A stretch of DNA of 36,793 nt, taken from positions 1-36,793 of the forward strand of contig JAHKXX010000101.1 in assembly GCA_020627425.1 (NCBI GenBank), written 5' to 3'. Source of the DNA: a bacterium. GTDB lineage: Bacteria; Bacillota; Clostridia; Oscillospirales; Acutalibacteraceae. Made by a program: the position numbers and the translations under genes. The notes beneath the pieces were generated by a model. The model was not told the origin of the DNA. It did no database searches and was given only the letters and a program-made list of their open reading frames with translations. Below are positions 2,632-36,745 of this stretch, piece after piece; position 1 is the first letter of the stretch, and the number at the start of each line of letters is the position of its first letter.

Positions 2632-2735
2632 ATCGCTTCCTCCTTTACAGTAAATGGGCGTATGCCCACACGAATATTTATTAATCAGAATACAATCAAG
2701 CAGAATAAACGATCATACTTGATATCATTTTCAAT

Positions 2736-2766
2736 CAGCGCTAAGCGGCACCATGCCGCTACCACT
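2736..2766 (+). repeat. intergenic structured repeat, orphan fragment R0 (H1-type hairpin only)
   Basis: CAGCGCTAA + AGCGGCA-cca-TGCCGCT (2744-2760) matches the CAGCGCTAA-GCGGCxC start of hairpin H1 in R3/R11, but the rest of the unit is missing. Confidence 0.6.
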
Positions 2767-2784
2767 ACGAGTATTATTTTAACA

Positions 2785-2963
2785 GGACACACCAAGCAGA
2801 ATAGAGAAATGTACCTGCCTTAACTTCAATGCAGCACAAGCGGCACCCTGTGTGCCGCGACGCGGACAAAGATGGACAATAAACCCAGCCTGTACGCGTG
2901 CCAATTTAGTAGGCGGCAACACCAACTACAGTGCGCGAATTGCCACCGGCGGCTCGCCGGTGC
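2785..2963 (+). repeat. intergenic structured repeat R1 (short unit: linker+H1+core+H2), P-ward orientation on +
   Basis: Linker GGACACACCAAGCAGAATAGAGAAATGTACC. H1 GCGGCAC-cctgt-GTGCCGC (2840-2858). Core GCGGACAAAGATGGACAATAAACCCAGCCTGTACGCGTGCCAA ... ACAGTGCGCGAATTG. H2 CACCGGCG-gct-CGCCGGTG (2944-2962). TTGACG follows at 2964. Confidence 0.85.
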
Positions 2964-2993
2964 TTGACGGGGGTAGGCACGCTGCTTTATAAT
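2964..2993 (+). promoter_or_regulatory. sigma-A-type promoter abutting R1, drives the thioesterase-recD2-comF operon
   Basis: TTGACG (2964-2969), 18-nt G-rich spacer GGGGTAGGCACGCTGCTT, TATAAT (2988-2993); 45 nt upstream of the ATG at 3039. Confidence 0.7.
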
Positions 2994-5675: not shown

Positions 5676-6361
5676 CTGAATCTATGAACAGGCTTACAGA
5701 AACCGTATTATCATTTATTATGCCAAGCCGCTGTCCCTTTTGCGGAAAAAGGATAGCCTACGACGAGAGCGAGTGCAGCAATTGCCGCTCGTTTTTTCCG
5801 AAGGACATAAAAAGAAAGGCGCTCCCGACAGGCGAAGAATGCTTTTATCCGTTCTACTACGAGAGCAGGTACAAGGACGCTATGCTTGCTCTGAAGTTCA
5901 AGGGTATGCGATACTATGCCGTCAGCTTTGCAAAGGCTATGACAGGATGTGCAAAAAGAGCCTATGGTGAATATCATATAGATATGATAACCTATGTGCC
6001 TATGTCGGGAAAAAAGAAGCTGCTGCGCGGATACAACCAGTCAAAGCTTCTTGCCGACATTATCGCCCGTGAGCTTTCGGTACCCTGTTGCAGTACACTA
6101 TACAAAAACCCGAAAACTCCCGAACAGCACAAGCTATCAAAGGAAGAGCGGGAGCAAAACGTCCGCGGCGCTTTCTCTCTGAAATACAGCGGTTCTCTTG
6201 ACGGCAAAGTCGTTTTACTTATTGACGACATTATCACCACCGGAAACACCCTATCCGAATGCACTCGTTTACTCCGCTGCGCCGGCGCCCACCCCCTTCC
6301 CCTCTGCGCCACGGGCAGCGCCGGCGGAGTGCCTCCGCAGTCGATTCGCGCCGGCGAGTGA
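5672..6361 (+). CDS. comFC: ComF family protein (phosphoribosyltransferase-like, competence ComFC type)
   Basis: ATGA start/stop overlap with recD2. N-terminal Cys4 finger CPFCG...CSNCR and PRTase motif VLLIDDIITTGNTL. The last ~15-25 codons run into repeat R2 (see findings). Confidence 0.85.
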   Translation: MTESMNRLTETVLSFIMPSRCPFCGKRIAYDESECSNCRSFFPKDIKRKALPTGEECFYPFYYESRYKDAMLALKFKGMRYYAVSFAKAMTGCAKRAYGEYHIDMITYVPMSGKKKLLRGYNQSKLLADIIARELSVPCCSTLYKNPKTPEQHKLSKEEREQNVRGAFSLKYSGSLDGKVVLLIDDIITTGNTLSECTRLLRCAGAHPLPLCATGSAGGVPPQSIRAGE

Positions 6362-6500
6362 GTGTTACCGCATACCTTGTTGGCACGCGGTCGGGTTGGT
6401 CTTATTATACCTCTCAGTCCGCGCCGTGCCGTACAGGACGGCACTTGACGCTGCTATAAAGTGACGGCGAGTATATTTGTCTATTCTGTTTATTGTCTCC
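6315..6500 (-). repeat. intergenic structured repeat R2 (short unit, tail-less arm of dimer R2/R3), P-ward on -
   Basis: + strand reads GCGGAG-tgc-CTCCGC (6324-6338), AGTCGATTCGCGCC, TTGGCACGCGG, CTTATTATACCTCTCAGTCCGCG, H1 GTGCCGT-acagg-ACGGCAC (6426-6444), then linker ...GTCTATTCTGTTTATTGTCTCC ending at 6500. Overlaps the comF 3' end. Confidence 0.85.
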
Positions 6501-6836
6501 GACTTTTAAAATTTACTGAAGACTGAAAACTTAAAACTGAATATTTAAAAATGATAGTCAGAAACTCACATTATACTCGCTGTACTGTTTTTCGGAGACA
6601 ATGAGCAGAGTAGAAAAGTATACTCGCCTCCACAATAAACCAGCGCTAAGCGGCGCGTAAGCGCCGTGACACGGACAAAAAGGTATAATAAACCCGGCTC
6701 GTACGCGTGCCAAAAAAGTCGGCGATAAAAACAACTACAGTGCGCGTGTTGACCGCGCAGGCACTGCGCCGCGTGCCAAGAAGGTAAGCGGTAACATAAA
6801 CCACAGTGCGCGAGTCGACAGCCCGGGCACCGGGCA
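6501..6836 (+). repeat. intergenic structured repeat R3 (full unit with AT-rich tail; internal module duplication), P-ward on +
   Basis: Tail GACTTTTAAAATTTACTGAAGAC...CTCACATTATACTCGCTGTACTGTTTTTC, linker GGAGACAATGAGCAGAGTAGAAAAGTATACTCGCC. H1 CGGCGC-gtaa-GCGCCG (6651-6666). Core ...AATAAACCCGGCTCGTACGCGTGCCAA...ACAGTGCGCG (6705-6746), repeated at 6771-6812. H2 hairpins GCGCAG-gca-CTGCGC (6755-6769) and GCCCGG-gca-CCGGGC (6821-6835). Confidence 0.9.
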
Positions 6837-6843
6837 TTTTTTT
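6821..6843 (+). terminator. intrinsic-terminator-like hairpin forming the last H2 of R3 (likely end of the recD2-comF transcript and/or of a repeat transcript)
   Basis: GCCCGG-gca-CCGGGC followed by A + T7 (6837-6843). Confidence 0.5.
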
Positions 6844-6852
6844 GGAATAATG

Positions 6853-6881
6853 TTGAAAAATCAGACATAATATTGTAGAAT
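6853..6881 (+). promoter_or_regulatory. sigma-A-type promoter for the GNAT gene (not G-rich, outside the repeat)
   Basis: TTGAAA (6853-6858), 17-nt AT-rich spacer, TAGAAT (6876-6881). Confidence 0.6.
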
Positions 6882-11410: not shown

Positions 11411-11439
11411 ATTTTACACCTCCCCCCTCCCCCTGTCAA
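11411..11439 (-). promoter_or_regulatory. sigma-A-type promoter abutting R4, drives citrate synthase
   Basis: Reverse strand: TTGACA (11434-11439), 17-nt spacer GGGGGAGGGGGGAGGTG, TAAAAT (11411-11416). Confidence 0.7.
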
Positions 11440-11712
11440 GCAGCGTGCCCGGCGCGTGCTCGCGCTGAGCAATTCGCGCACTGTAGTTGGTTGTGTCCTC
11501 CACTTTGTTGGCACGCGTACGAGCCGGGTTTATTGTCCCTCTCCGTCCGCGTCACGGCGCTCAGGGCGCCGCTCGTGCTGGTTTGGAGTGGCGGCAAGTA
11601 TATTTTCTACTCTACTTATTGTCTCCAAAAAACAATACAGCGAGTGTGATGTGAGTCTCTCACACTCATTATTCTTTTTTCTTTATTCTCTATTCTTTAT
11701 TCTTCTATTCTG
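11440..11712 (-). repeat. intergenic structured repeat R4 (full solo unit), P-ward on -
   Basis: + strand: GCGCG-tgct-CGCGC, TGAGCAATTCGCGCACTGT, TTGGCACGCGTACGAGCCGGGTTTATTGTCCCTCTCCGTCCGC, H1 CGGCGC-tcagg-GCGCCG (11555-11571), linker ...TTATTGTCTCC (to 11626), tail A6-CAATACAGCGAGTGTGATGTGAGTCTCTCAC plus TATTCT-rich run up to the yitJ stop at 11713. Confidence 0.9.
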
Positions 11713-16560: not shown

Positions 16561-16589
16561 ATTTTAATACATTCCCCCCACTCTGTCAA
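16561..16589 (-). promoter_or_regulatory. sigma-A-type promoter abutting R5, drives ymdB
   Basis: Reverse strand: TTGACA (16584-16589), 17-nt spacer GAGTGGGGGGAATGTAT, TAAAAT (16561-16566). Confidence 0.7.
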
Positions 16590-16775
16590 CCCGGTGCCCG
16601 GGCGGCGCGTGCTCGCGCTGAGCAATTCGCGCTCTCGAATTGGTGTTGCCGCCGACTTTATTGGCACGCGGTCAAGCCTGGTTTATTATACCTCTCCGTC
16701 CGCGTCACGGCGCTTACGCGCCGCTCGTGCTGCATCGTTATGCAGGCAAATGTGTTTGTCTATTCTATTTGGTGT
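16590..16775 (-). repeat. intergenic structured repeat R5 (short unit), P-ward on -
   Basis: + strand: CCCGG-tgc-CCGGG (16590-16602), GCGCG-tgct-CGCGC, TGAGCAATTCGCGC, TTGGCACGCGG, GGTTTATTATACCTCTCCGTCCGCG, H1 CGGCGC-ttac-GCGCCG (16708-16723), GCTCGTGCTG, degenerate linker ...TTTGTCTATTCTATTTGGTGTAAC. Confidence 0.9.
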
Positions 16776-16869
16776 AACTGATTATTGTTTATATAATATA
16801 CAGTCAGTATACTATTTTATAACACTACTAATAGTATATTTATAACCGAAAGTAATATCTTGTAGACAA

Positions 16870-16915
16870 CAAAAAACACATCACCGTCATGATGATGTGT
16901 TTTGTACTTTTTATT
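16870..16915 (-). terminator. rho-independent terminator (bidirectional in form) downstream of the yabE-like gene and R6
   Basis: ACACATCA-ccgtcatga-TGATGTGT (16876-16900), flanked by A6 on the left (T6 on the reverse strand) and a T-rich run on the right. Confidence 0.7.
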
Positions 16916-16929
16916 TTGTTGGATCATTC

Positions 16930-17095
16930 AGCAGAAAAGCCAAATGAACTTGTCATTACTCCAAACCAGCACGAGCGGCACCCTGAGTGCCGCGACGCGG
17001 ACTGAGAGGTACAATAAACCCAACTCGACCGCGTGCCAACAAAGCGGGCGGTAACACACACCCGAGTGCGCGAATTGCTCAGCGCGAGCACGCGC
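16930..17095 (+). repeat. intergenic structured repeat R6 (short unit), P-ward on +, ends exactly at the yabE-like stop codon
   Basis: ...CTCCAAACCAGCACGA, H1 GCGGCAC-cctga-GTGCCGC (16975-16993), GACGCGGACTGAGAGGTACAATAAACCCAACTCGACCGCGTGCCAACAAAG...GAGTGCGCGAATTGCTCA, H2 GCGCG-agca-CGCGC ending at 17095. TTA (reverse-strand stop) at 17096-17098. Confidence 0.9.
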
Positions 17096-18358
17096 TTAGT
17101 TGTAGGTTGCGCTTTCGGGAACACCGCTGAGGACGTATATTGTAACGTCACGTCTGCCGAATACGCAGCACTCGTCAAGAGTGTCATAGTACAGGTCAAC
17201 GATAGCGGTACCTTCCCATAATGCTCCGCCTGTGTCACCTGCTACGGCATAACCGTAAACTACCTGTCCGTCGTTTGATACTATATAAAGTATTGAACCG
17301 TAGGGGATGATGTCGGGGTCAACGGCTACAACACCATAACGTGCTGCTCTGCCTGTTGCGGTAAGAGGATGCTCCTCCTCTGAATAATATGCTGTACCCG
17401 AACCTGTGAGTACCTGTGTGTAATCTACTGTGTTTCCGTTGGGATCTGTAAGAGTCTTTTCTGTCTCGTTGACGGTTATTGCTCCGCTGGAGGTTGAGAA
17501 ACGGTTTACTCTTTCCTTGGTTCCTACCAGTACTACCTCGTTTACAGGCTCCTTTACGACCTCGCTGCTAAGCTTTTTGCTTTCAACGACCTTGCCGTTT
17601 ACTATCTTGTCATTGGTTACTATCTTGCGCTCGCCCTCGACGCCGCTTCTTATTACTTTTCTCTCGCCGTCGTACAGTTCGTCGCTTGACTGTGTCTCTG
17701 TCTTGTAGCCTATCTTTTCTATCTTTGTGTTTTTCTTATAGGTCGTGTTCTCAATCTTTATCTCGAGTCCGTTTTCAACCTTCTGGTTACCATTTGTTAA
17801 AAGCTTGTCGTTCTTATTAAGCTCTATATCAAGATACTTAAGAGCCTGCTGAACTGTACCCTCGGGTACTTCCTTGCTGTATATCTTGCCTCTGAGATTT
17901 ACCTTTACAGTGTAAAAACGCTTTATGGTTATCTCTGAGCTTTCCGAGCCGCCGGATGCTTTCTCGGACAGTGAAGCGGAATCATTCTGGCTGAGTGTCA
18001 TTCCTGCTGCCTTGAGAGCGTCAGCTACAGTTCCTTCATCAAATGTAATAAATCTGCTTTCTTTGCCGTCCATTGAAAACGCACGCATTATAGAAATGTT
18101 TACGTTGTTAGCCTCGGCATCGGTGCGTACAAGCTTGTCGTTGCTGCCAAGCTCGACTCCTGCGCGTACAAGTATAGCGTCAGTGTCGGAATTCATAGTG
18201 TTGATAGTCATTGTCTTTTCGCCGTCTGTTACTGTAACGGTTTTTGATAACGCCGTAACCGAGAACGCAGCCGTAAGGCATATAGTACCCATAAGCGCAA
18301 CCGAAACTGCTTTTTGAAGTCCCTTATAGCGATTGTTGTTTTGACCGTTCATAATCAA
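17096..18358 (-). CDS. yabE: YabE-like cell-wall protein (DUF348 repeats + G5 domain + 3D/RlpA-like domain)
   Basis: 420 aa; signal/anchor helix; G5-like middle region; C-terminal 3D domain (TATGRAARYGVVAVDPDIIPYGS...AGDTGGAL...VDLYY). Canonical promoter at 18418-18446. Confidence 0.8.
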   Translation of the reverse strand: MIMNGQNNNRYKGLQKAVSVALMGTICLTAAFSVTALSKTVTVTDGEKTMTINTMNSDTDAILVRAGVELGSNDKLVRTDAEANNVNISIMRAFSMDGKESRFITFDEGTVADALKAAGMTLSQNDSASLSEKASGGSESSEITIKRFYTVKVNLRGKIYSKEVPEGTVQQALKYLDIELNKNDKLLTNGNQKVENGLEIKIENTTYKKNTKIEKIGYKTETQSSDELYDGERKVIRSGVEGERKIVTNDKIVNGKVVESKKLSSEVVKEPVNEVVLVGTKERVNRFSTSSGAITVNETEKTLTDPNGNTVDYTQVLTGSGTAYYSEEEHPLTATGRAARYGVVAVDPDIIPYGSILYIVSNDGQVVYGYAVAGDTGGALWEGTAIVDLYYDTLDECCVFGRRDVTIYVLSGVPESATYN

Positions 18359-21243: not shown

Positions 21244-21272
21244 ATTATACCCCATAATCCCCCCTATTTCAA
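21244..21272 (-). promoter_or_regulatory. sigma-A-type promoter abutting R7, drives tatD-SDR-thyX-like
   Basis: Reverse strand: TTGAAA (21267-21272), 17-nt spacer TAGGGGGGATTATGGGG, TATAAT (21244-21249). Confidence 0.7.
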
Positions 21273-21530
21273 GCGGCGGAGTGCCTCCGCGGTCAATTCA
21301 CGCACTCTGGTTGGTGTTACCCCTACCTTATCAGCACGCGTACGAGTTTGGTTTATTGTACCTCTACATCCGCACCACAGCGCATAGAGCGCTGCTTGTG
21401 CTGGTTGGGAGTGAAGATTAAAATGCTTTCTACTCTATTCAATTTCCCCAAAAAACAGTACGGTGAGTATGATGTGAGTTTCTCACAATTGTTAATTTTT
21501 AAGTTTTAAGGTTTCCGTCTTCAGTAAACA
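21273..21530 (-). repeat. intergenic structured repeat R7 (full solo unit), P-ward on -
   Basis: + strand: GCGGAG-tgc-CTCCGC, GGTCAATTCACGCACTCT, ATCAGCACGCGTACGAGTTTGGTTTATTGTACCTCTACATCCGC, H1 CAGCGC-ataga-GCGCTG (21378-21394), linker ...CTACTCTATTCAATTTCCCC, tail A6-CAGTACGGTGAGTATGATGTGAGTTTCTCAC...GTCTTCAGTAAA. Fills the whole gap between the PLC-like stop (21543) and the tatD promoter. Confidence 0.9.
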
Positions 21531-24910: not shown

Positions 24911-24940
24911 ATTATACCACACCCTCCACCCAAAAAACAA
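24911..24940 (-). promoter_or_regulatory. sigma-A-type promoter abutting R8, drives pcrA (weak -35)
   Basis: Reverse strand: TTGTTT (24935-24940), 18-nt spacer TTTGGGTGGAGGGTGTGG, TATAAT (24911-24916). Confidence 0.55.
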
Positions 24941-25142
24941 CCCGGTGCCCGGGCGGCGTGCCTCCGGCGCGTGCTCGCGCTGAGCAATTCGCGCACTCTG
25001 ATTGATGTTACCACCTACCTATCGGCACGCGTACGAGTGGGGTTTATTGTCCCTCTCCGTCCGCGCCGTGCCGCACAGGGCGGCACTTGACGCTGCTTTA
25101 GAGTGGAGGCGAGTGTGTTTGTCTATTTTATTTATCGTCTCC
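24941..25142 (-). repeat. intergenic structured repeat R8 (short unit, tail-less arm of dimer R8/R9), P-ward on -
   Basis: + strand: CCCGG-tgc-CCGGG (24941-24953), GCGCG-tgct-CGCGC, TGAGCAATTCGCGCACTCT, ATCGGCACGCGTACGAGTGGGGTTTATTGTCCCTCTCCGTCCGCG, H1 GTGCCGC-acagg-GCGGCAC (25068-25086), linker ...TTTGTCTATTTTATTTATCGTCTCC ending at 25142. Confidence 0.9.
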
Positions 25143-25450
25143 GTTTTTAAAAAATACTGAAGACTTAAGACTGAAAACTGAAAAATGAATAATGATTGTG
25201 TGAACTCACATCATACTTGCCGTATTGCCTTTTTGGAGACAATAAGTAAAATAGAGAAATATACCAGCCTTCACTATTAAGCAGCACGAGCGCCGCCCTG
25301 AGCGGCGTGACGCGGAAAAAGAGGTAGAATAAACCAAGCTTGAGACGTTGCTCTGTAGTAGGCGGTAACAATAATTTGCCACGCTGCGGCGTGCCGTGCA
25401 CGCCCTTGCCGCCGTGCGGCAAGAGAGAGTTGACAGCACAGGCACTGTGT
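25143..25450 (+). repeat. intergenic structured repeat R9 (full unit, B subfamily), P-ward on +
   Basis: Tail GTTTTTAAAAAATACTGAAGAC...CTCACATCATACTTGCCGTATTGCCTTTTT, linker GGAGACAATAAGTAAAATAGAGAAATATACC. H1 CGCCGC-cctga-GCGGCG (25291-25307). Diverged core; extra hairpins GGCGTGC-cgt-GCACGCC (25388-25404) and CTTGCCGC-cgt-GCGGCAAG (25405-25423); TTGACA; H2 CACAG-gca-CTGTG (25437-25449). Confidence 0.85.
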
Positions 25451-25451
25451 G

Positions 25452-25480
25452 TTGTTTTTTTTGAAAATGTGTGATATTAT
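25452..25480 (+). promoter_or_regulatory. extended -10 promoter for the response regulator/kinase/htrA operon
   Basis: TTGTTT (25452-25457), 17-nt spacer, TGaTATTAT (TG at 25472-25473, TATTAT at 25475-25480). The TTGACA inside R9 (25430-25435) has no -10 partner. Confidence 0.5.
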
Positions 25481-27774: not shown

Positions 27775-29256
27775 ATGCCTGACAACAGATTTACAGACGA
27801 CTCAAACAATCCGATACCGCAGAGCAGAGACAATATCTACAGCGGCTCGTACAACATCGACCCTTACGGTACAGCAAACAACGGTTCAAACGGATACAAC
27901 CCTTACAATAACAGAGGCTATAGCAGAATGGATCGCGGCGAGCTTTCCCGTCAGGTTGACGAGCGATACAACAGCATAAACGGCAACCAATACTATGCGG
28001 ACTACAATAATTACGGGTACAATTACAGTGTAAGTCCCCTGCCGCCCGAGCCTCCGAAAAAGAAGCACACCGGGCTGAAGGCTTTTGTGATCTCGTTTTT
28101 GTGCGTACTGCTTGCCGTTGTAATAGGTCTTTCGGTTTTACTTATATACAACATAGGAACAACCGACACAAAACCCAAAAAGTCAAAGGATGAGTCCTAC
28201 GACTACAATTCCGACACAAGCTACAGCACAGAGACCTCGTTCACAAGCGCACCCGAAGCAAGTGCAAATCTTAACGGTCCACAGGTAAGCATATCGGAGT
28301 CAAACGGCGATGATGAAGTATCCGATGAAGTGAACGGAGCATATCTGAAGGTATCAAAAAGTATAGTATGCATAACCTCCTATGAAGCCGGAACGGATTT
28401 TACCGTGACCGGGAACGGCGAAGGCTCCGGAATAGTAATAACCTCAGACGGCTATATAGCCACCAACAGCCATGTAGTCAACGACTCGACCACGACCGGT
28501 GTTATGATAACGCTGAACGACGGTTCGCAGTATCTGGGCACGATAATCGGCATAGACAAAAAAACAGACCTTGCGGTAATAAAGATAGACGCAAAGGATC
28601 TGTCTCCGGCAGAGTTTTCCGACTCCGACAAGCTATATGTCGGACAGCCTGCCTATGCTATCGGAAACCCCGGCGGCTCGGCTTTTTCCAATTCTCTTAC
28701 CACCGGCAGTATATCGGCTCTGAACAGGATATTATCCACAAACGGCTATGTAAAGTACATACAGACAGACGCCGCCATAAACCCCGGCAACTCCGGCGGC
28801 GCGCTCATTGACAAATACGGCAGCGTAGTAGGTATGAACACCGCAAAGCTGGTGGCTACGGACTACGAGAGTATGGGCTTTGCAATACCGAGCAACACTG
28901 TTGTATCCATAGTAAACAAGCTGATAAAATACGGCTATGTAAACGACAGGGGTACTCTCGGTATAGAAGGCGCTACCTCTACTCTGTACAATGCAAAAAT
29001 GAATGGTGTTCCCCAGGGTATGATACTGACAAAAATCGAAAGCTACAGCCCTCTCGCGAAAACCAACGTCAGAGAGCAGGACATCATCACTATGATCAAC
29101 GGAACAACCATAACCAATGTTAACGAATTTACCGACATCCTGAAGGACTACAAGCCCGGTGACAGTGTTACCCTTACGCTCTTCCGTCCCTCCTCCCGCA
29201 GCATCTCTGAAACTTTCAGCTACAACGTCACCGTAAAACTGATCCCCGACCGCTAG
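27775..29256 (+). CDS. HtrA/DegP-family S1C serine protease with PDZ domain, membrane-anchored
   Basis: AGGAGG RBS. N/Y-rich cytoplasmic head, one TM helix, catalytic TNSHVV ... D ... GNSGGAL, C-terminal PDZ-like region. Confidence 0.85.
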   Translation: MPDNRFTDDSNNPIPQSRDNIYSGSYNIDPYGTANNGSNGYNPYNNRGYSRMDRGELSRQVDERYNSINGNQYYADYNNYGYNYSVSPLPPEPPKKKHTGLKAFVISFLCVLLAVVIGLSVLLIYNIGTTDTKPKKSKDESYDYNSDTSYSTETSFTSAPEASANLNGPQVSISESNGDDEVSDEVNGAYLKVSKSIVCITSYEAGTDFTVTGNGEGSGIVITSDGYIATNSHVVNDSTTTGVMITLNDGSQYLGTIIGIDKKTDLAVIKIDAKDLSPAEFSDSDKLYVGQPAYAIGNPGGSAFSNSLTTGSISALNRILSTNGYVKYIQTDAAINPGNSGGALIDKYGSVVGMNTAKLVATDYESMGFAIPSNTVVSIVNKLIKYGYVNDRGTLGIEGATSTLYNAKMNGVPQGMILTKIESYSPLAKTNVREQDIITMINGTTITNVNEFTDILKDYKPGDSVTLTLFRPSSRSISETFSYNVTVKLIPDR

Positions 29257-29430
29257 GCGCTGTGCCTGCGCTGTCAATTCGCGCAATGTAGCTTTTGTTA
29301 CCACCTACTTTTTTGGCACGCGGTCAAGCTTGGTCTATTGTCCCTCTCCGTCCGCGTCACGGCGCTTACGCGCCGCTCGTGCTGGTTTGGAGTGGAGGAC
29401 GGTATATTTGTCTGTTCTGTTTTGTAGACC
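29257..29430 (-). repeat. intergenic structured repeat R10 (short unit, tail-less arm of dimer R10/R11), P-ward on -, begins directly after the htrA stop
   Basis: TAG at 29254-29256, then + strand GCGCTG-tgc-CTGCGC (one mismatch), TGTCAATTCGCGCAATGT, TTGGCACGCGGTCAAGCTTGGTCTATTGTCCCTCTCCGTCCGCG, H1 CGGCGC-ttac-GCGCCG (29360-29375), GCTCGTGCTGGTTTGGAGTGG, linker ...TTTGTCTGTTCTGTTTTGTAGACC. Confidence 0.9.
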
Positions 29431-29742
29431 GACTTTAATAATTTACTGAAGACTGAAGACTTAAGACTGAAAAATGAATAATGATAGTGAAAATCTCACC
29501 TCAGACTTGCTGTACTGTTTTTTTGGAGACAATGAGTAGAGCAGACAAACACACTTGCCTCCTCTCCAAACCAGCGCTAAGCGGCACTTTGTGTGCCGTG
29601 ACGCGGACGGTATCGTACAATAAACCCAACTTGAGACGGTGCTCTGAAGTCGGCGGTAACAAGTACCAGCCACGCTCCGGCGTGCCGTGCACGCCCTTGT
29701 CGCCGTGCGGCAAGAGAGAGTCGACAGCGGCGGCACGCCGCC
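29431..29742 (+). repeat. intergenic structured repeat R11 (full unit, B subfamily), P-ward on +
   Basis: Tail GACTTTAATAATTTACTGAAGAC...CTCACCTCAGACTTGCTGTACTGTTTTTTT, linker GGAGACAATGAGTAGAGCAGACAAAC. H1 CGGCAC-tttgt-GTGCCG (29582-29598). Core GCGGACGGTATCGTACAATAAACCCAACTTGAGACGGTGCTC. Extra hairpins 29679-29695 and 29696-29714. TCGACA; H2 GCGGCG-gca-CGCCGC (29727-29741). Confidence 0.9.
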
Positions 29743-29771
29743 TTGACAGGGGGATGGGAGAGAGGTATAAT
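29743..29771 (+). promoter_or_regulatory. sigma-A-type promoter abutting R11, drives the YkuD-like gene
   Basis: TTGACA (29743-29748), 17-nt spacer GGGGGATGGGAGAGAGG, TATAAT (29766-29771). Confidence 0.75.
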
Positions 29772-36537: not shown

Positions 36538-36567
36538 ATTATACCCCCGGCGTGCCGCCCCTGTCAA
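36538..36567 (-). promoter_or_regulatory. sigma-A-type promoter abutting R12, drives purL(-mreB)
   Basis: Reverse strand: TTGACA (36562-36567), 18-nt spacer GGGGCGGCACGCCGGGGG, TATAAT (36538-36543). Confidence 0.7.
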
Positions 36568-36745
36568 GCGGAGTGCCTCCGCGGTCGATTCGCGCACTCG
36601 AATTGGTAGTATCCCTACCTTGTGGCACGCGTACGAGCGGGGTTTATTGTCCCTCTCCGTCCGCGCCGTGCCGCACAGGGCGGCACTTGTCGCTGCTTTG
36701 ATGTGAGAATAAGTGTATTTGTCTTTTCCGCTTGGTGTATCACAC
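36568..36745 (-). repeat. intergenic structured repeat R12 (short unit as far as visible), P-ward on -
   Basis: + strand: GCGGAG-tgc-CTCCGC (36568-36582), GGTCGATTCGCGCACTCG, GTGGCACGCGTACGAGCGGGGTTTATTGTCCCTCTCCGTCCGCG, H1 GTGCCGC-acagg-GCGGCAC (36668-36686), degenerate linker ...GTATTTGTCTTTTCCGCTTGGTGTATCAC. Confidence 0.9.

Follow-up and report, generated by a model that had tools for sequence, protein, structure and literature searches.

Three intergenic regions on a 36,793-nt stretch of DNA from an uncultured bacterium (contig JAHKXX010000101.1 of assembly GCA_020627425.1, forward strand; the whole stretch is referred to as the window) carry two copies of a repeat that are joined tail to tail across one AT-rich tail, with an almost identical internal junction in which GTCTCC (TAGACC in one case) meets the far end of the tail. 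The question raised by these loci, among them the control region between pcrA and a response-regulator gene, is whether GTCTCC is a target at which one repeat unit inserts site-specifically into another, or whether the inverted dimer is itself a unit; both possibilities had been considered in a preliminary description of this DNA. According to the present analysis, the identity of the junction at the three loci is explained as the module boundary of a shared composite; the wider reading, in which the dimers are one fixed composite of a mosaic boundary repeat family of REP/BIME/BOX-like kind, is proposed with even confidence.

The host is an Acutalibacteraceae bacterium (order Oscillospirales) of a gut or rumen community; the closest relatives of its PcrA protein (at most 71% amino-acid identity) belong to rumen "Ruminococcus", Acutalibacteraceae and Ruminococcaceae metagenome-assembled genomes, and the genes of the window are housekeeping genes (recD2, comF-like, citrate synthase, metF/S-methyltransferase, fakA, spoVS, ymdB, tatD, pcrA, a two-component system with htrA, ykuD, a sigma factor gene, mreB and purL). 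Repeat copies were identified by repeat finding, BLAST and a profile hidden Markov model (HMM) built from the copies themselves: the window contains 12 copies (R1 to R12) of a GC-rich core of approximately 180 nt (nhmmer E-values between 1e-40 and 4e-50) and two core fragments (2688-2762 and 6769-6837), all of them intergenic, that cover 7.7% of the window at a density of about one copy per 3 kb. Pairwise core identity among the copies is 51-79% (within-genome divergence 20-45%), and the A and B core types are mosaics, not clean lineages. The repeat family is also carried by conspecific and sister-lineage contigs of five other samples, which were found via exact or near-exact protein look-ups; the species or its sister lineages are contained in samples SRR10765531, ERZ14209542, ERZ28594501, ERZ1029114 and ERZ12202796. 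Exact-protein look-ups with purL and the leftmost gene, made to reach past the window ends, gave no match. The comparison contigs are metagenome assemblies in which strain chimeras inside the repeats are possible. Altogether, about 18 copies and five distinct pairs from the window and the relatives' contigs constitute the evidence base.

Each unit is composed of a head with one to three GC-rich hairpins, the core, and an optional AT-rich tail of up to about 95 nt, which continues from five copies (R3, R4, R7, R9, R11) and consists of a 10-bp hairpin, a T-rich run and, beyond it, three to six degenerate TGAAGAC heptads. In the dimers D1 (6315-6837), D2 (24941-25450) and D3 (29253-29742), two cores stand tail to tail with their heads outward around one common tail of about 90 nt: on the plus strand, a tail-less core adjoins the far end of the tail that belongs to a minus-strand full copy. 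The junctions, present as the preliminary description had quoted them, read ...TTATTGTCTCC joined to GACTTTTAAAATTTACTGAAGAC in D1 (6490-6522), ...TTATCGTCTCC joined to GTTTTTAAAAAATACTGAAGAC in D2 (25134-25165) and, with TAGACC in place of GTCTCC, ...TTTTGTAGACC joined to GACTTTAATAATTTACTGAAGAC in D3 (29421-29452). The three dimers are colinear over approximately 500-560 nt with a mean column identity of 78% and a junction offset of at most 1 nt, which is far beyond chance and identifies the dimer as a defined composite. A linker of 13-14 nt (GACTTTTAAAATTT, GTTTTTAAAAAAT and GACTTTAATAATTT) is common to all three and absent from the two solo full copies; together with the intact inheritance across strains and a sister lineage, and with one solo copy that represents a deleted dimer (see below), it fits the suggestion that the dimer is a unit.

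The partner arms are 68%, 63% and 56% identical, i.e. they are indeed different variants and not recent self-duplications; since they are no more alike than random copy pairs (51-79%), the dimers are old. The earlier typing of the arms stands insofar as the arms differ, whereas R10 is not A-type (its internal hairpin is the B form, in keeping with the mosaic nature of the types). Likewise, the three dimers originally listed are real, but a fourth tail-to-tail pair (R5/R6) is also present and the outer ends of the composites extend to the promoter. As single strands, the dimers, inverted doublets with a fixed spacer, were predicted to fold as one long hairpin (z of -10.9 and -12.3), yet the arms are only 56-68% identical; co-evolution of partner arms was rejected (two shared private substitutions observed versus 2.5 expected), and because there is no such excess, there is no evidence for selection on the long hairpin. 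In the case of D2, the composite occupies 510 of the 630 nt between the start codons of pcrA and the response-regulator gene, that is nearly all of this control region as had been noted before, with two putative promoters at its outer edges.

A full copy has a core that terminates in ...TTGTCTCC, after which comes the tail; the other core of a dimer ends with the same motif across the same tail, GTCTCC and GGAGAC thereby bracketing the dimer centre. The "tail-less" arm stops at precisely the point at which full copies pass from core to tail, which makes the junction an ordinary core/tail module boundary; and because the tail is bordered by GGAGAC on the side of its own full copy as well, GTCTCC marks where the core module ends. 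The cores with this motif are precisely those next to a tail (R2, R3, R4, R8, R9 and R11; variants in R7 and R10), the tail-less solo copies R1, R5 and R12 end with TTGGTGTRWC, R6 is likewise devoid of GTCTCC, and a GTCTCC-ended tail-less core beside unrelated DNA was found in none of the 18 copies examined. Because it occurs only in cores touching a tail, GTCTCC does not behave as a free insertion target, but as the core-module end at the tail.

The comparison with related contigs documents both the stability and the turnover of the composite. In the independent assembly L085 (99.2% identical to the window), D1 is about 99% identical with the same junction and differs only in the left terminal hairpin; in L082, a sister lineage approximately 91% identical over 4.3 kb, D2 is located upstream of the same response-regulator gene, again with the same junction. 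D1 and D2 are thus independently reproduced and no assembly artefacts. The head-proximal two thirds of the left D2 arm of L082 are a different variant, and the left neighbor is an ABC-transporter gene, not pcrA, which points to dispersed copies having recombined at a breakpoint within the arm. The D1 locus of L088 (flanks about 92% identical) has kept the left arm together with GTCTCC and heptads amounting to 26 nt, directly after which come remnants of the right head; here, the dimer became a solo copy through internal deletion. In L089 (flanks 97-98% identical), the D1 locus is occupied by another inverted pair, whose two arms are truncated at the same position around a 115-nt GC-rich, near-perfect palindrome; at its R1 locus, a full copy with tail takes the place of the tail-less R1 and 75-nt fragment of the window, and the tail of this solo copy adjoins GCGCTTCGCTA, not GTCTCC. 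At the R4 locus of L089, the window core has given way to an A-type core whose hairpin is expanded by 26 nt, the tail and the promoter flank being 100% identical; this core swap is a clean gene-conversion tract. The outermost head hairpins differ between strains, and the termini are the most variable part of the element. In sum, the composite is passed on en bloc, internal deletion reduces it to solo copies, and ectopic gene conversion from copies elsewhere keeps re-patterning its cores; the overwriting of cores accounts for the mosaic A/B types and the mismatched dimer arms.

The tail-to-tail layout is general and the exact junction is one of several forms. Variable junctions or spacers, which the preliminary description had regarded as indicative of chance adjacency, do in part occur: the L088 junction is 13 nt shorter, the L089 pair is centered on the GC-rich palindrome, and R5 and R6, whose cores do not end with GTCTCC, are separated by a 138-nt AT-rich spacer (16781-16918) that is unrelated to the dimer centres. 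Within this spacer, an A run on one side and a T run on the other enclose a 13-bp hairpin (16873-16903), a canonical bidirectional terminator between convergent cores; all pairs possess a central hairpin or terminator. An invertible promoter (inverton) was rejected, as the dimer centre has the same orientation in three assemblies (window, L085, L082) and D3 is without a short perfect inverted repeat at the centre borders. The GC-rich, nearly perfect palindrome of about 100 nt (folding energy -57 to -63 kcal/mol) that stands in for the AT-rich centre in one strain is located at L089 8185-8300; similar CCTCTCC...GGAGAGG palindromes in related genomes (noted at L084 9380-9520 and L021 2824-2866) suggest a second small repeat family.

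Every head points at the nearest gene end: nine face gene starts, and three (R2, R6, R10) abut or overlap stop codons. The head hairpins (13-19 nt with flanking TTGAC) have a conserved stem-GGCAC-stem (GTGCC) centre enclosed by covarying stems. A sigma-70-type promoter with a G-rich spacer lies within a few bases of each of the nine start-facing heads, and directly outside a head are six of the eight window promoter matches that scored at least 11/12 in the promoter scan (Table 1); the repeated module appears to include the promoter. In R3, R8 and R9, the outermost head hairpin together with a T run is terminator-like in the outward-reading direction. Head hairpins are gained or lost between strains along with one TTGAC copy.

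Such turnover is visible in L088 (100-170) compared to L089 (4660-4700) and in L082 (950-1100), where a whole "C-type" head is tandemly duplicated; the hairpin units of the heads behave like tiny duplicating modules, and in L089 one of them fills exactly the 17-nt spacer between the -35 and -10 hexamers. Beside stop codons, the ComF-like open reading frame (ORF) terminates inside the R2 head (window 6320-6361), its C-terminal codons varying among strains with the head variant, and the stop codons of the G5-domain gene (17096-17098) and the HtrA-like gene (29254-29256) occupy the position of the terminal TCAAGC motif, as CTAAGC and CTAGGC; the repeat end may supply the stop codon of adjoining genes.

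The core contains a single robustly covarying helix of 6 bp (72 of 72 cells Watson-Crick, compensatory changes in five of the six pairs), and its remainder is conserved as sequence. Single cores folded slightly better than shuffled controls (mean z of about -1.3 and -1.7); with one covarying helix and z scores of this size, an extensive RNA structure of the core was rejected. Two copies from different lineages (L089 13145-13175; L088 20-60) carry a 26-nt expansion (GCGCCCGAAGGAAGTGCCCTTGGGGTA) within the covarying hairpin, which accordingly tolerates a longer stem, like the variable stems of structured nucleic acids.

In the reading preferred here, the three dimers, in each of which two units are arranged tail to tail with heads outward and share one tail, would descend from one ancestral dimer instead of three targeted insertions, as their colinearity and common linker suggest. 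The element would serve as a boundary cassette between transcription units, to judge by its position: the heads would supply or abut the promoters and 3' hairpins of the flanking genes, and the centre would supply a hairpin or terminator between the arms. Several points weigh against this reading. It draws on five distinct pairs and approximately 18 copies, and left arms and right arms fail to form separate clades, which leaves colinearity and linker as the arguments for common descent. Should the linker be the natural end of the tail, site-specific joining could still have generated the junction. No transposase was detected in the window and no target duplication was seen at the dimer ends. 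Moreover, the copy-specific conservation described below, alongside the within-genome divergence of 20-45%, is a contrast for which the proposed composite does not account; the conservation figures derive from metagenome contigs with possible strain chimeras inside the repeats.

Among known systems, inverted REP doublets (REPINs) and the REP/BIME clusters of proteobacteria (PMC3116915, PMC3337134, PMC3333891, PMC2817692) offer the closest parallels. Shared with them are the abundance and the non-coding, strictly intergenic position, the inverted pair of units around a spacer with single units read as decayed doublets (such a deletion was seen in L088), mosaics of modules with conserved linkers, GC-rich hairpins with covarying stems, and long persistence at orthologous sites. 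As in BIMEs, one module order (head-core, linker-tail, core-head) recurs three times with a conserved linker, other centres being found in R5/R6 and L089; the likeness is architectural and comes without sequence relationship to the BIMEs of E. coli. In contrast to REPs and REPINs, the arms are approximately 180-250 nt long (versus 20-40 nt) and the composite approximately 500 nt (versus about 100 nt); partner arms are 56-68% identical without a sign of co-evolution, copies differ by 20-45% and do not cluster around a master sequence, a consistent GTAG/CGTC tag is missing (GTAG in 4 of 12 copies, 10-15 nt off the hairpin), the heads carry outward promoters, and the host is a Firmicute (Bacillota). 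A REP-associated tyrosine transposase (RAYT) gene, like a Y1 transposase gene suggested as a possible companion of the repeat, is absent from the 36.8-kb window. In view of the unit size and the tag, membership in the REP/REPIN family was rejected.

The BOX elements of Streptococcus pneumoniae are modular as well (boxA-boxB(n)-boxC), and the present repeat resembles them as a set of Firmicute intergenic modules in variable number (here one to three head hairpins and an optional tail) that are non-coding, hairpin-forming and located beside promoters and gene ends. Unlike BOX, it shows no sequence similarity to these elements and differs in size and module order; to our knowledge, BOX elements have not been described as fixed inverted dimers with a common centre, nor as carrying the full promoter of a flanking gene.

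Copies that escaped overwriting appear, from the sequence comparison, to be constrained. Between the window and L082, the centre and right core of D2 differ at six of 269 nt (97.8% identical; 97.8% in the centre and 97.8% in the core), compared to 82-85% for the third codon positions of the genes next to it and 87% for its head plus promoter (binomial P <1e-9). Between the window and L088, the body of R2 differs at three of 118 nt (97.5% identical), two of these differences being a compensatory pair in the hairpin, compared to 79-84% at third codon positions and 86% in the promoter and 5' untranslated region (P <4e-5).

This strong conservation of orthologous copies is one of the features that could point to a pair of convergent small-RNA genes, an alternative which we consider rather unlikely. 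Each core would be a transcription unit predicted to read from head to tail, and the arms of a dimer would share the tail terminator, the left transcript running antisense into the right arm; the supposed layout of the unit would comprise an internal promoter and a tail terminator, with the covarying hairpin as 5' stem-loop. The best-conserved core block on the head-to-tail strand (TTGGCA-17-TATTGT) is indeed a sigma-70-like -35/-10 pair with invariant 17-nt spacing and variable spacer that passes the promoter scan in 7 of 12 copies, but the -35 hexamer is poorest in the full copies R7, R9 and R11, the L089 copy at the R1 locus has TGTTGT as -10, and neither block nor spacing is kept in the analogous elements of L008 and L038. 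The covarying hairpin is positioned just downstream of the predicted transcription start, yet single cores are weakly structured. In R4 and R7, the tail hairpin with its T run resembles a terminator when read from head to tail, against the direction of the flanking genes; base pairing of the tail hairpin is better on this strand (5 broken cells versus 9 on the other), and every pair is convergent with a central hairpin or terminator, including the bidirectional terminator of R5/R6; however, the head hairpins and T runs of R3, R8 and R9 point the opposite way. Extrapolated from the density in the window, hundreds of such genes per genome would result, which would be unprecedented, and Rfam provided no match. 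A broader and likewise tentative, rather improbable variant regards the repeat as a host-constrained module that would supply most sigma-70 promoters, with the cores as small head-to-tail units and the dimers as convergent small-RNA pairs with shared terminator, partly antisense, and with conversion rewiring the pairing of variants and operons; it would explain why orthologues are conserved like non-synonymous sites despite the divergence of 20-45% within the genome.

Less probable, and in our view clearly unlikely, is that the dimer represents a complete non-autonomous transposon, namely a foldback MITE (miniature inverted-repeat transposable element) with terminal inverted repeats of about 200 nt (head and core) around the AT-rich centre, the solo copies being half-elements. 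Outward -35 hexamers and promoters are common at insertion sequence termini, and the Correia elements of Neisseria are MITEs with outward promoters. Like promoter-bearing MITEs and "reused" or mobile promoters (PMC3575422), the repeat places a -35 or a whole promoter before unrelated genes (heads hold 6 of the 8 best matches), and the dimer form shares the inverted-repeat architecture of MITEs. The heads point outward in five of five distinct pairs, but this is equally explained by the simpler rule that each head faces the nearest gene; the folding into one long hairpin and the observed deletion from dimer to solo copy also speak for this reading. Against it, partner arms are 56-68% identical with no excess of shared private substitutions, and full solo copies with a tail of their own exist (R7 and the L089 copy at the R1 locus). 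Furthermore, inspection by eye (no formal scan) revealed no target-site duplication at the ends of the three dimers or of the solo copies, short and well-conserved terminal inverted repeats are missing, the termini with their head hairpins are most variable between strains, and a transposase was not detected. Old and diverged, the copies have core identities of 51-79% with no near-identical pairs, and turn over by deletion and conversion tracts instead of insertion and excision; membership in the MITEs was consequently rejected.

Targeted insertion, the site-specific mechanism of IS200/IS605- or REP-like type envisaged in the preliminary description, is very unlikely. In this scenario, the full unit is a mobile element that inserts tail first 3' of the GTCTCC of a resident tail-less copy, and each dimer is an independent event. 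IS200/IS605 elements and the non-autonomous palindrome-associated transposable elements (PATEs) insert 3' of a tetra- or pentanucleotide (PMC3333891, PMC6006769), a mode that GTCTCC would suit; a solo unit without obvious terminal inverted repeats or duplications is a further common trait, and hairpins near the ends (several in the head, one in the tail) may be another, the head hairpins being of the sort that Y1 transposases recognise. A junction offset of at most 1 nt at three loci with arms of different variants would also be in line with such events, and the tail flank of R7 (...TCCCGG) faintly resembles ...CTCCGA. However, the proposed target was not found tail-free ("empty" GTCTCC-ended copies amount to 0 of 18), it strictly accompanies the tail and is also present on the full copy's own side, D3 has TAGACC, and the tail of the solo full copy in L089 adjoins a different sequence. 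The strain polymorphisms are an imprecise internal deletion and core swaps without clean gain or loss (insertion or excision) of a unit, no Y1_Tnp or other transposase domain was detected among the ORFs of the 36.8-kb window, and any mobility would be old given copies diverged by 20-45%. The repeat was therefore not assigned to the IS200/IS605-type elements (PATEs). Finally, chance adjacency of independent copies or an assembly artefact has a negligible probability: occasional intergenic regions with two copies are expected at one copy per 3 kb, but the three dimers are colinear to within 1 nt with a common linker and have arms too diverged for palindromic assembly chimeras, and two of them recur in independent assemblies of other samples.

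Database searches did not connect the repeat to a known family. A 23-base core pattern that fits 7 of the 12 window copies had no match in GTDB species genomes, JGI metagenomes or IMG/VR viral contigs; the core HMM detected zero copies in 80 related loci (1.2 Mb in total), and a six-frame "ORF" profile of the repeat, used to find miscalled proteins, matched none of 5.8 billion proteins. Plasmid and phage collections contained no repeat match, and no Rfam 15 family reached the gathering score across the whole window, relaxed E-values giving chance or long-hairpin matches far below threshold. The architecture resembles known REP/BIME/BOX-like kinds, but has no match in Rfam, plasmid or phage sequences. 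Upstream of pcrA, the nearest relatives have ordinary AT-rich DNA, and two more distant relatives (L008, L038) exhibit heptad repeats followed by a hairpin-containing core, a GC hairpin and a promoter; although alike in architecture, these elements were rejected as homologues, as sequence homology was not demonstrable (best nhmmer E-value about 2). A metagenome scan with the tail heptad returned more than 120 contigs, all of which came from unrelated environments, held pure (GACTGAA)n microsatellites and had no core in the vicinity; these arrays (loci L091-L170) show the same heptad as the window tail. Other intergenic heptanucleotide tandem repeats, (GTGTGGA)n and (CATTGNA)n, are located near pcrA in related genomes (L008 9660-9710, L010 7830-7925, L010 12385-12440). 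Further candidates were rejected: a protein-coding gene (all six frames interrupted, frames shifting between variants), integron attC sites (housekeeping flanking genes, both repeat orientations, no R'/R'' boxes), a type I toxin-antitoxin locus (no conserved small ORF), and a sigma-54 promoter in TTGGCACG (by eye, the -12 TTGC element is missing).

Table 1. Parts of the three dimers, the fourth pair, solo copies and associated promoters in the window.
Feature	Position	Strand	Description
D1 left arm (R2)	6315..6501	+	E 1.2e-46; head overlaps last codons and stop of ComF-like gene
R2 core end			...ATTGTCTCC
D1 centre (R3 tail)	6502..6592	-	AT-rich; identical in L085, mostly deleted in L088
D1 right arm (R3)	6593..6837	-	core and partly duplicated head
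R3 outer hairpin		+	GCCCGGGCACCGGGC then T7; terminator-like
GNAT gene promoter	6853-6881		TTGAAA-17-TAGAAT, beyond R3
D2 left arm (R8)	24941..25144	+	three-hairpin GC head, GGCAC/GTGCC centre; core 24963-25143, E 1.3e-49
R8 core end			...ATCGTCTCC; no own tail
R8 outward hairpin and T run	24954-24940	-	
D2 centre (R9 tail)	25145..25233	-	linker TTTTTAAAAAAT, degenerate TGAAGAC heptads
D2 centre hairpin		-	10 bp, ATGATGTGAG..CACACAATCAT, then T-rich run
D2 right arm (R9)	25234..25450	-	core E 1.3e-42 and C-type head
R9 outermost hairpin		+	CACAGGCACTGTG then T run
Putative pcrA promoter	24911..24940	-	TTGTTT-18-TATAAT outside R8 head; by eye, weak -35, not in promoter scan
Putative response-regulator promoter	25452..25480	+	TTGTTT-17-TGaTATTAT, extended -10, outside R9 head; by eye
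D3 left arm (R10)	29253..29432	+	E 2.2e-46; head hairpin begins at stop codon of HtrA-like gene
R10 core end			...TGTAGACC
D3 centre (R11 tail)	29433..29523	-	AT-rich
D3 right arm (R11)	29524..29742	-	E 1.2e-40; core and C-type head
YkuD-family gene promoter	29743-29771	+	TTGACA-17-TATAAT, 12/12 match, outside R11
R5/R6 tail-to-tail pair	16601..17099		R5 16601-16780 (+), R6 16919-17099 (-)
R1, solo, tail-less	2784-2964	-	outward promoter TTGACG-18-TATAAT at 2964-2993, plus strand
Core fragment, 75 nt	2688-2762		direct orientation just upstream of R1; 3' part of core incl. hairpin GCGGCACCATGCCGC
R4, solo, proximal half of tail	11411..11690	+	core 11448-11627
R4 outward promoter	11439-11411	-	TTGACA-17-TAAAAT, toward citrate synthase gene
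R7, solo full copy	21244..21530	+	core 21272-21450, tail to 21530
R7 outward promoter	21272-21244	-	TTGAAA-17-TATAAT, toward TatD gene
R12, tail-less, near window end	36564-36743	+	feature 36538..36743
R12 outward promoter	36567-36538	-	TTGACA-18-TATAAT, 12/12 match, toward purL
Six head promoters	2964-2993, 11411-11439, 16561-16589, 21244-21272, 29743-29771, 36538-36567		G-rich spacer common to all

Short-read contigs of the same strain from the Logan collection (L001, L086, L087; SRR10765531) stop inside repeat heads, L001 beginning at window position 29711. The repeat family fragments short-read assemblies of this organism, and the lineage is scarce in genome collections in part because the repeats break such assemblies.

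If the pattern of the window holds genome-wide, approximately 8% of the genome would belong to one repeat family that builds most operon boundaries, with promoters at the repeat heads and hairpins between the arms; an uncultured Firmicute of the gut or rumen would then clearly exemplify how a repeat propagates promoters. The family provides a natural system in which ectopic gene conversion visibly swaps regulatory cassettes among strains that are 98% identical in the flanks, and the strong apparent conservation of untouched copies versus the wholesale replacement of others is unusual for bacterial repeats. With its density, its promoter-bearing heads, the strong constraint suggested for its copies and their rapid, cassette-like replacement, the repeat family is of more interest than the junction itself.

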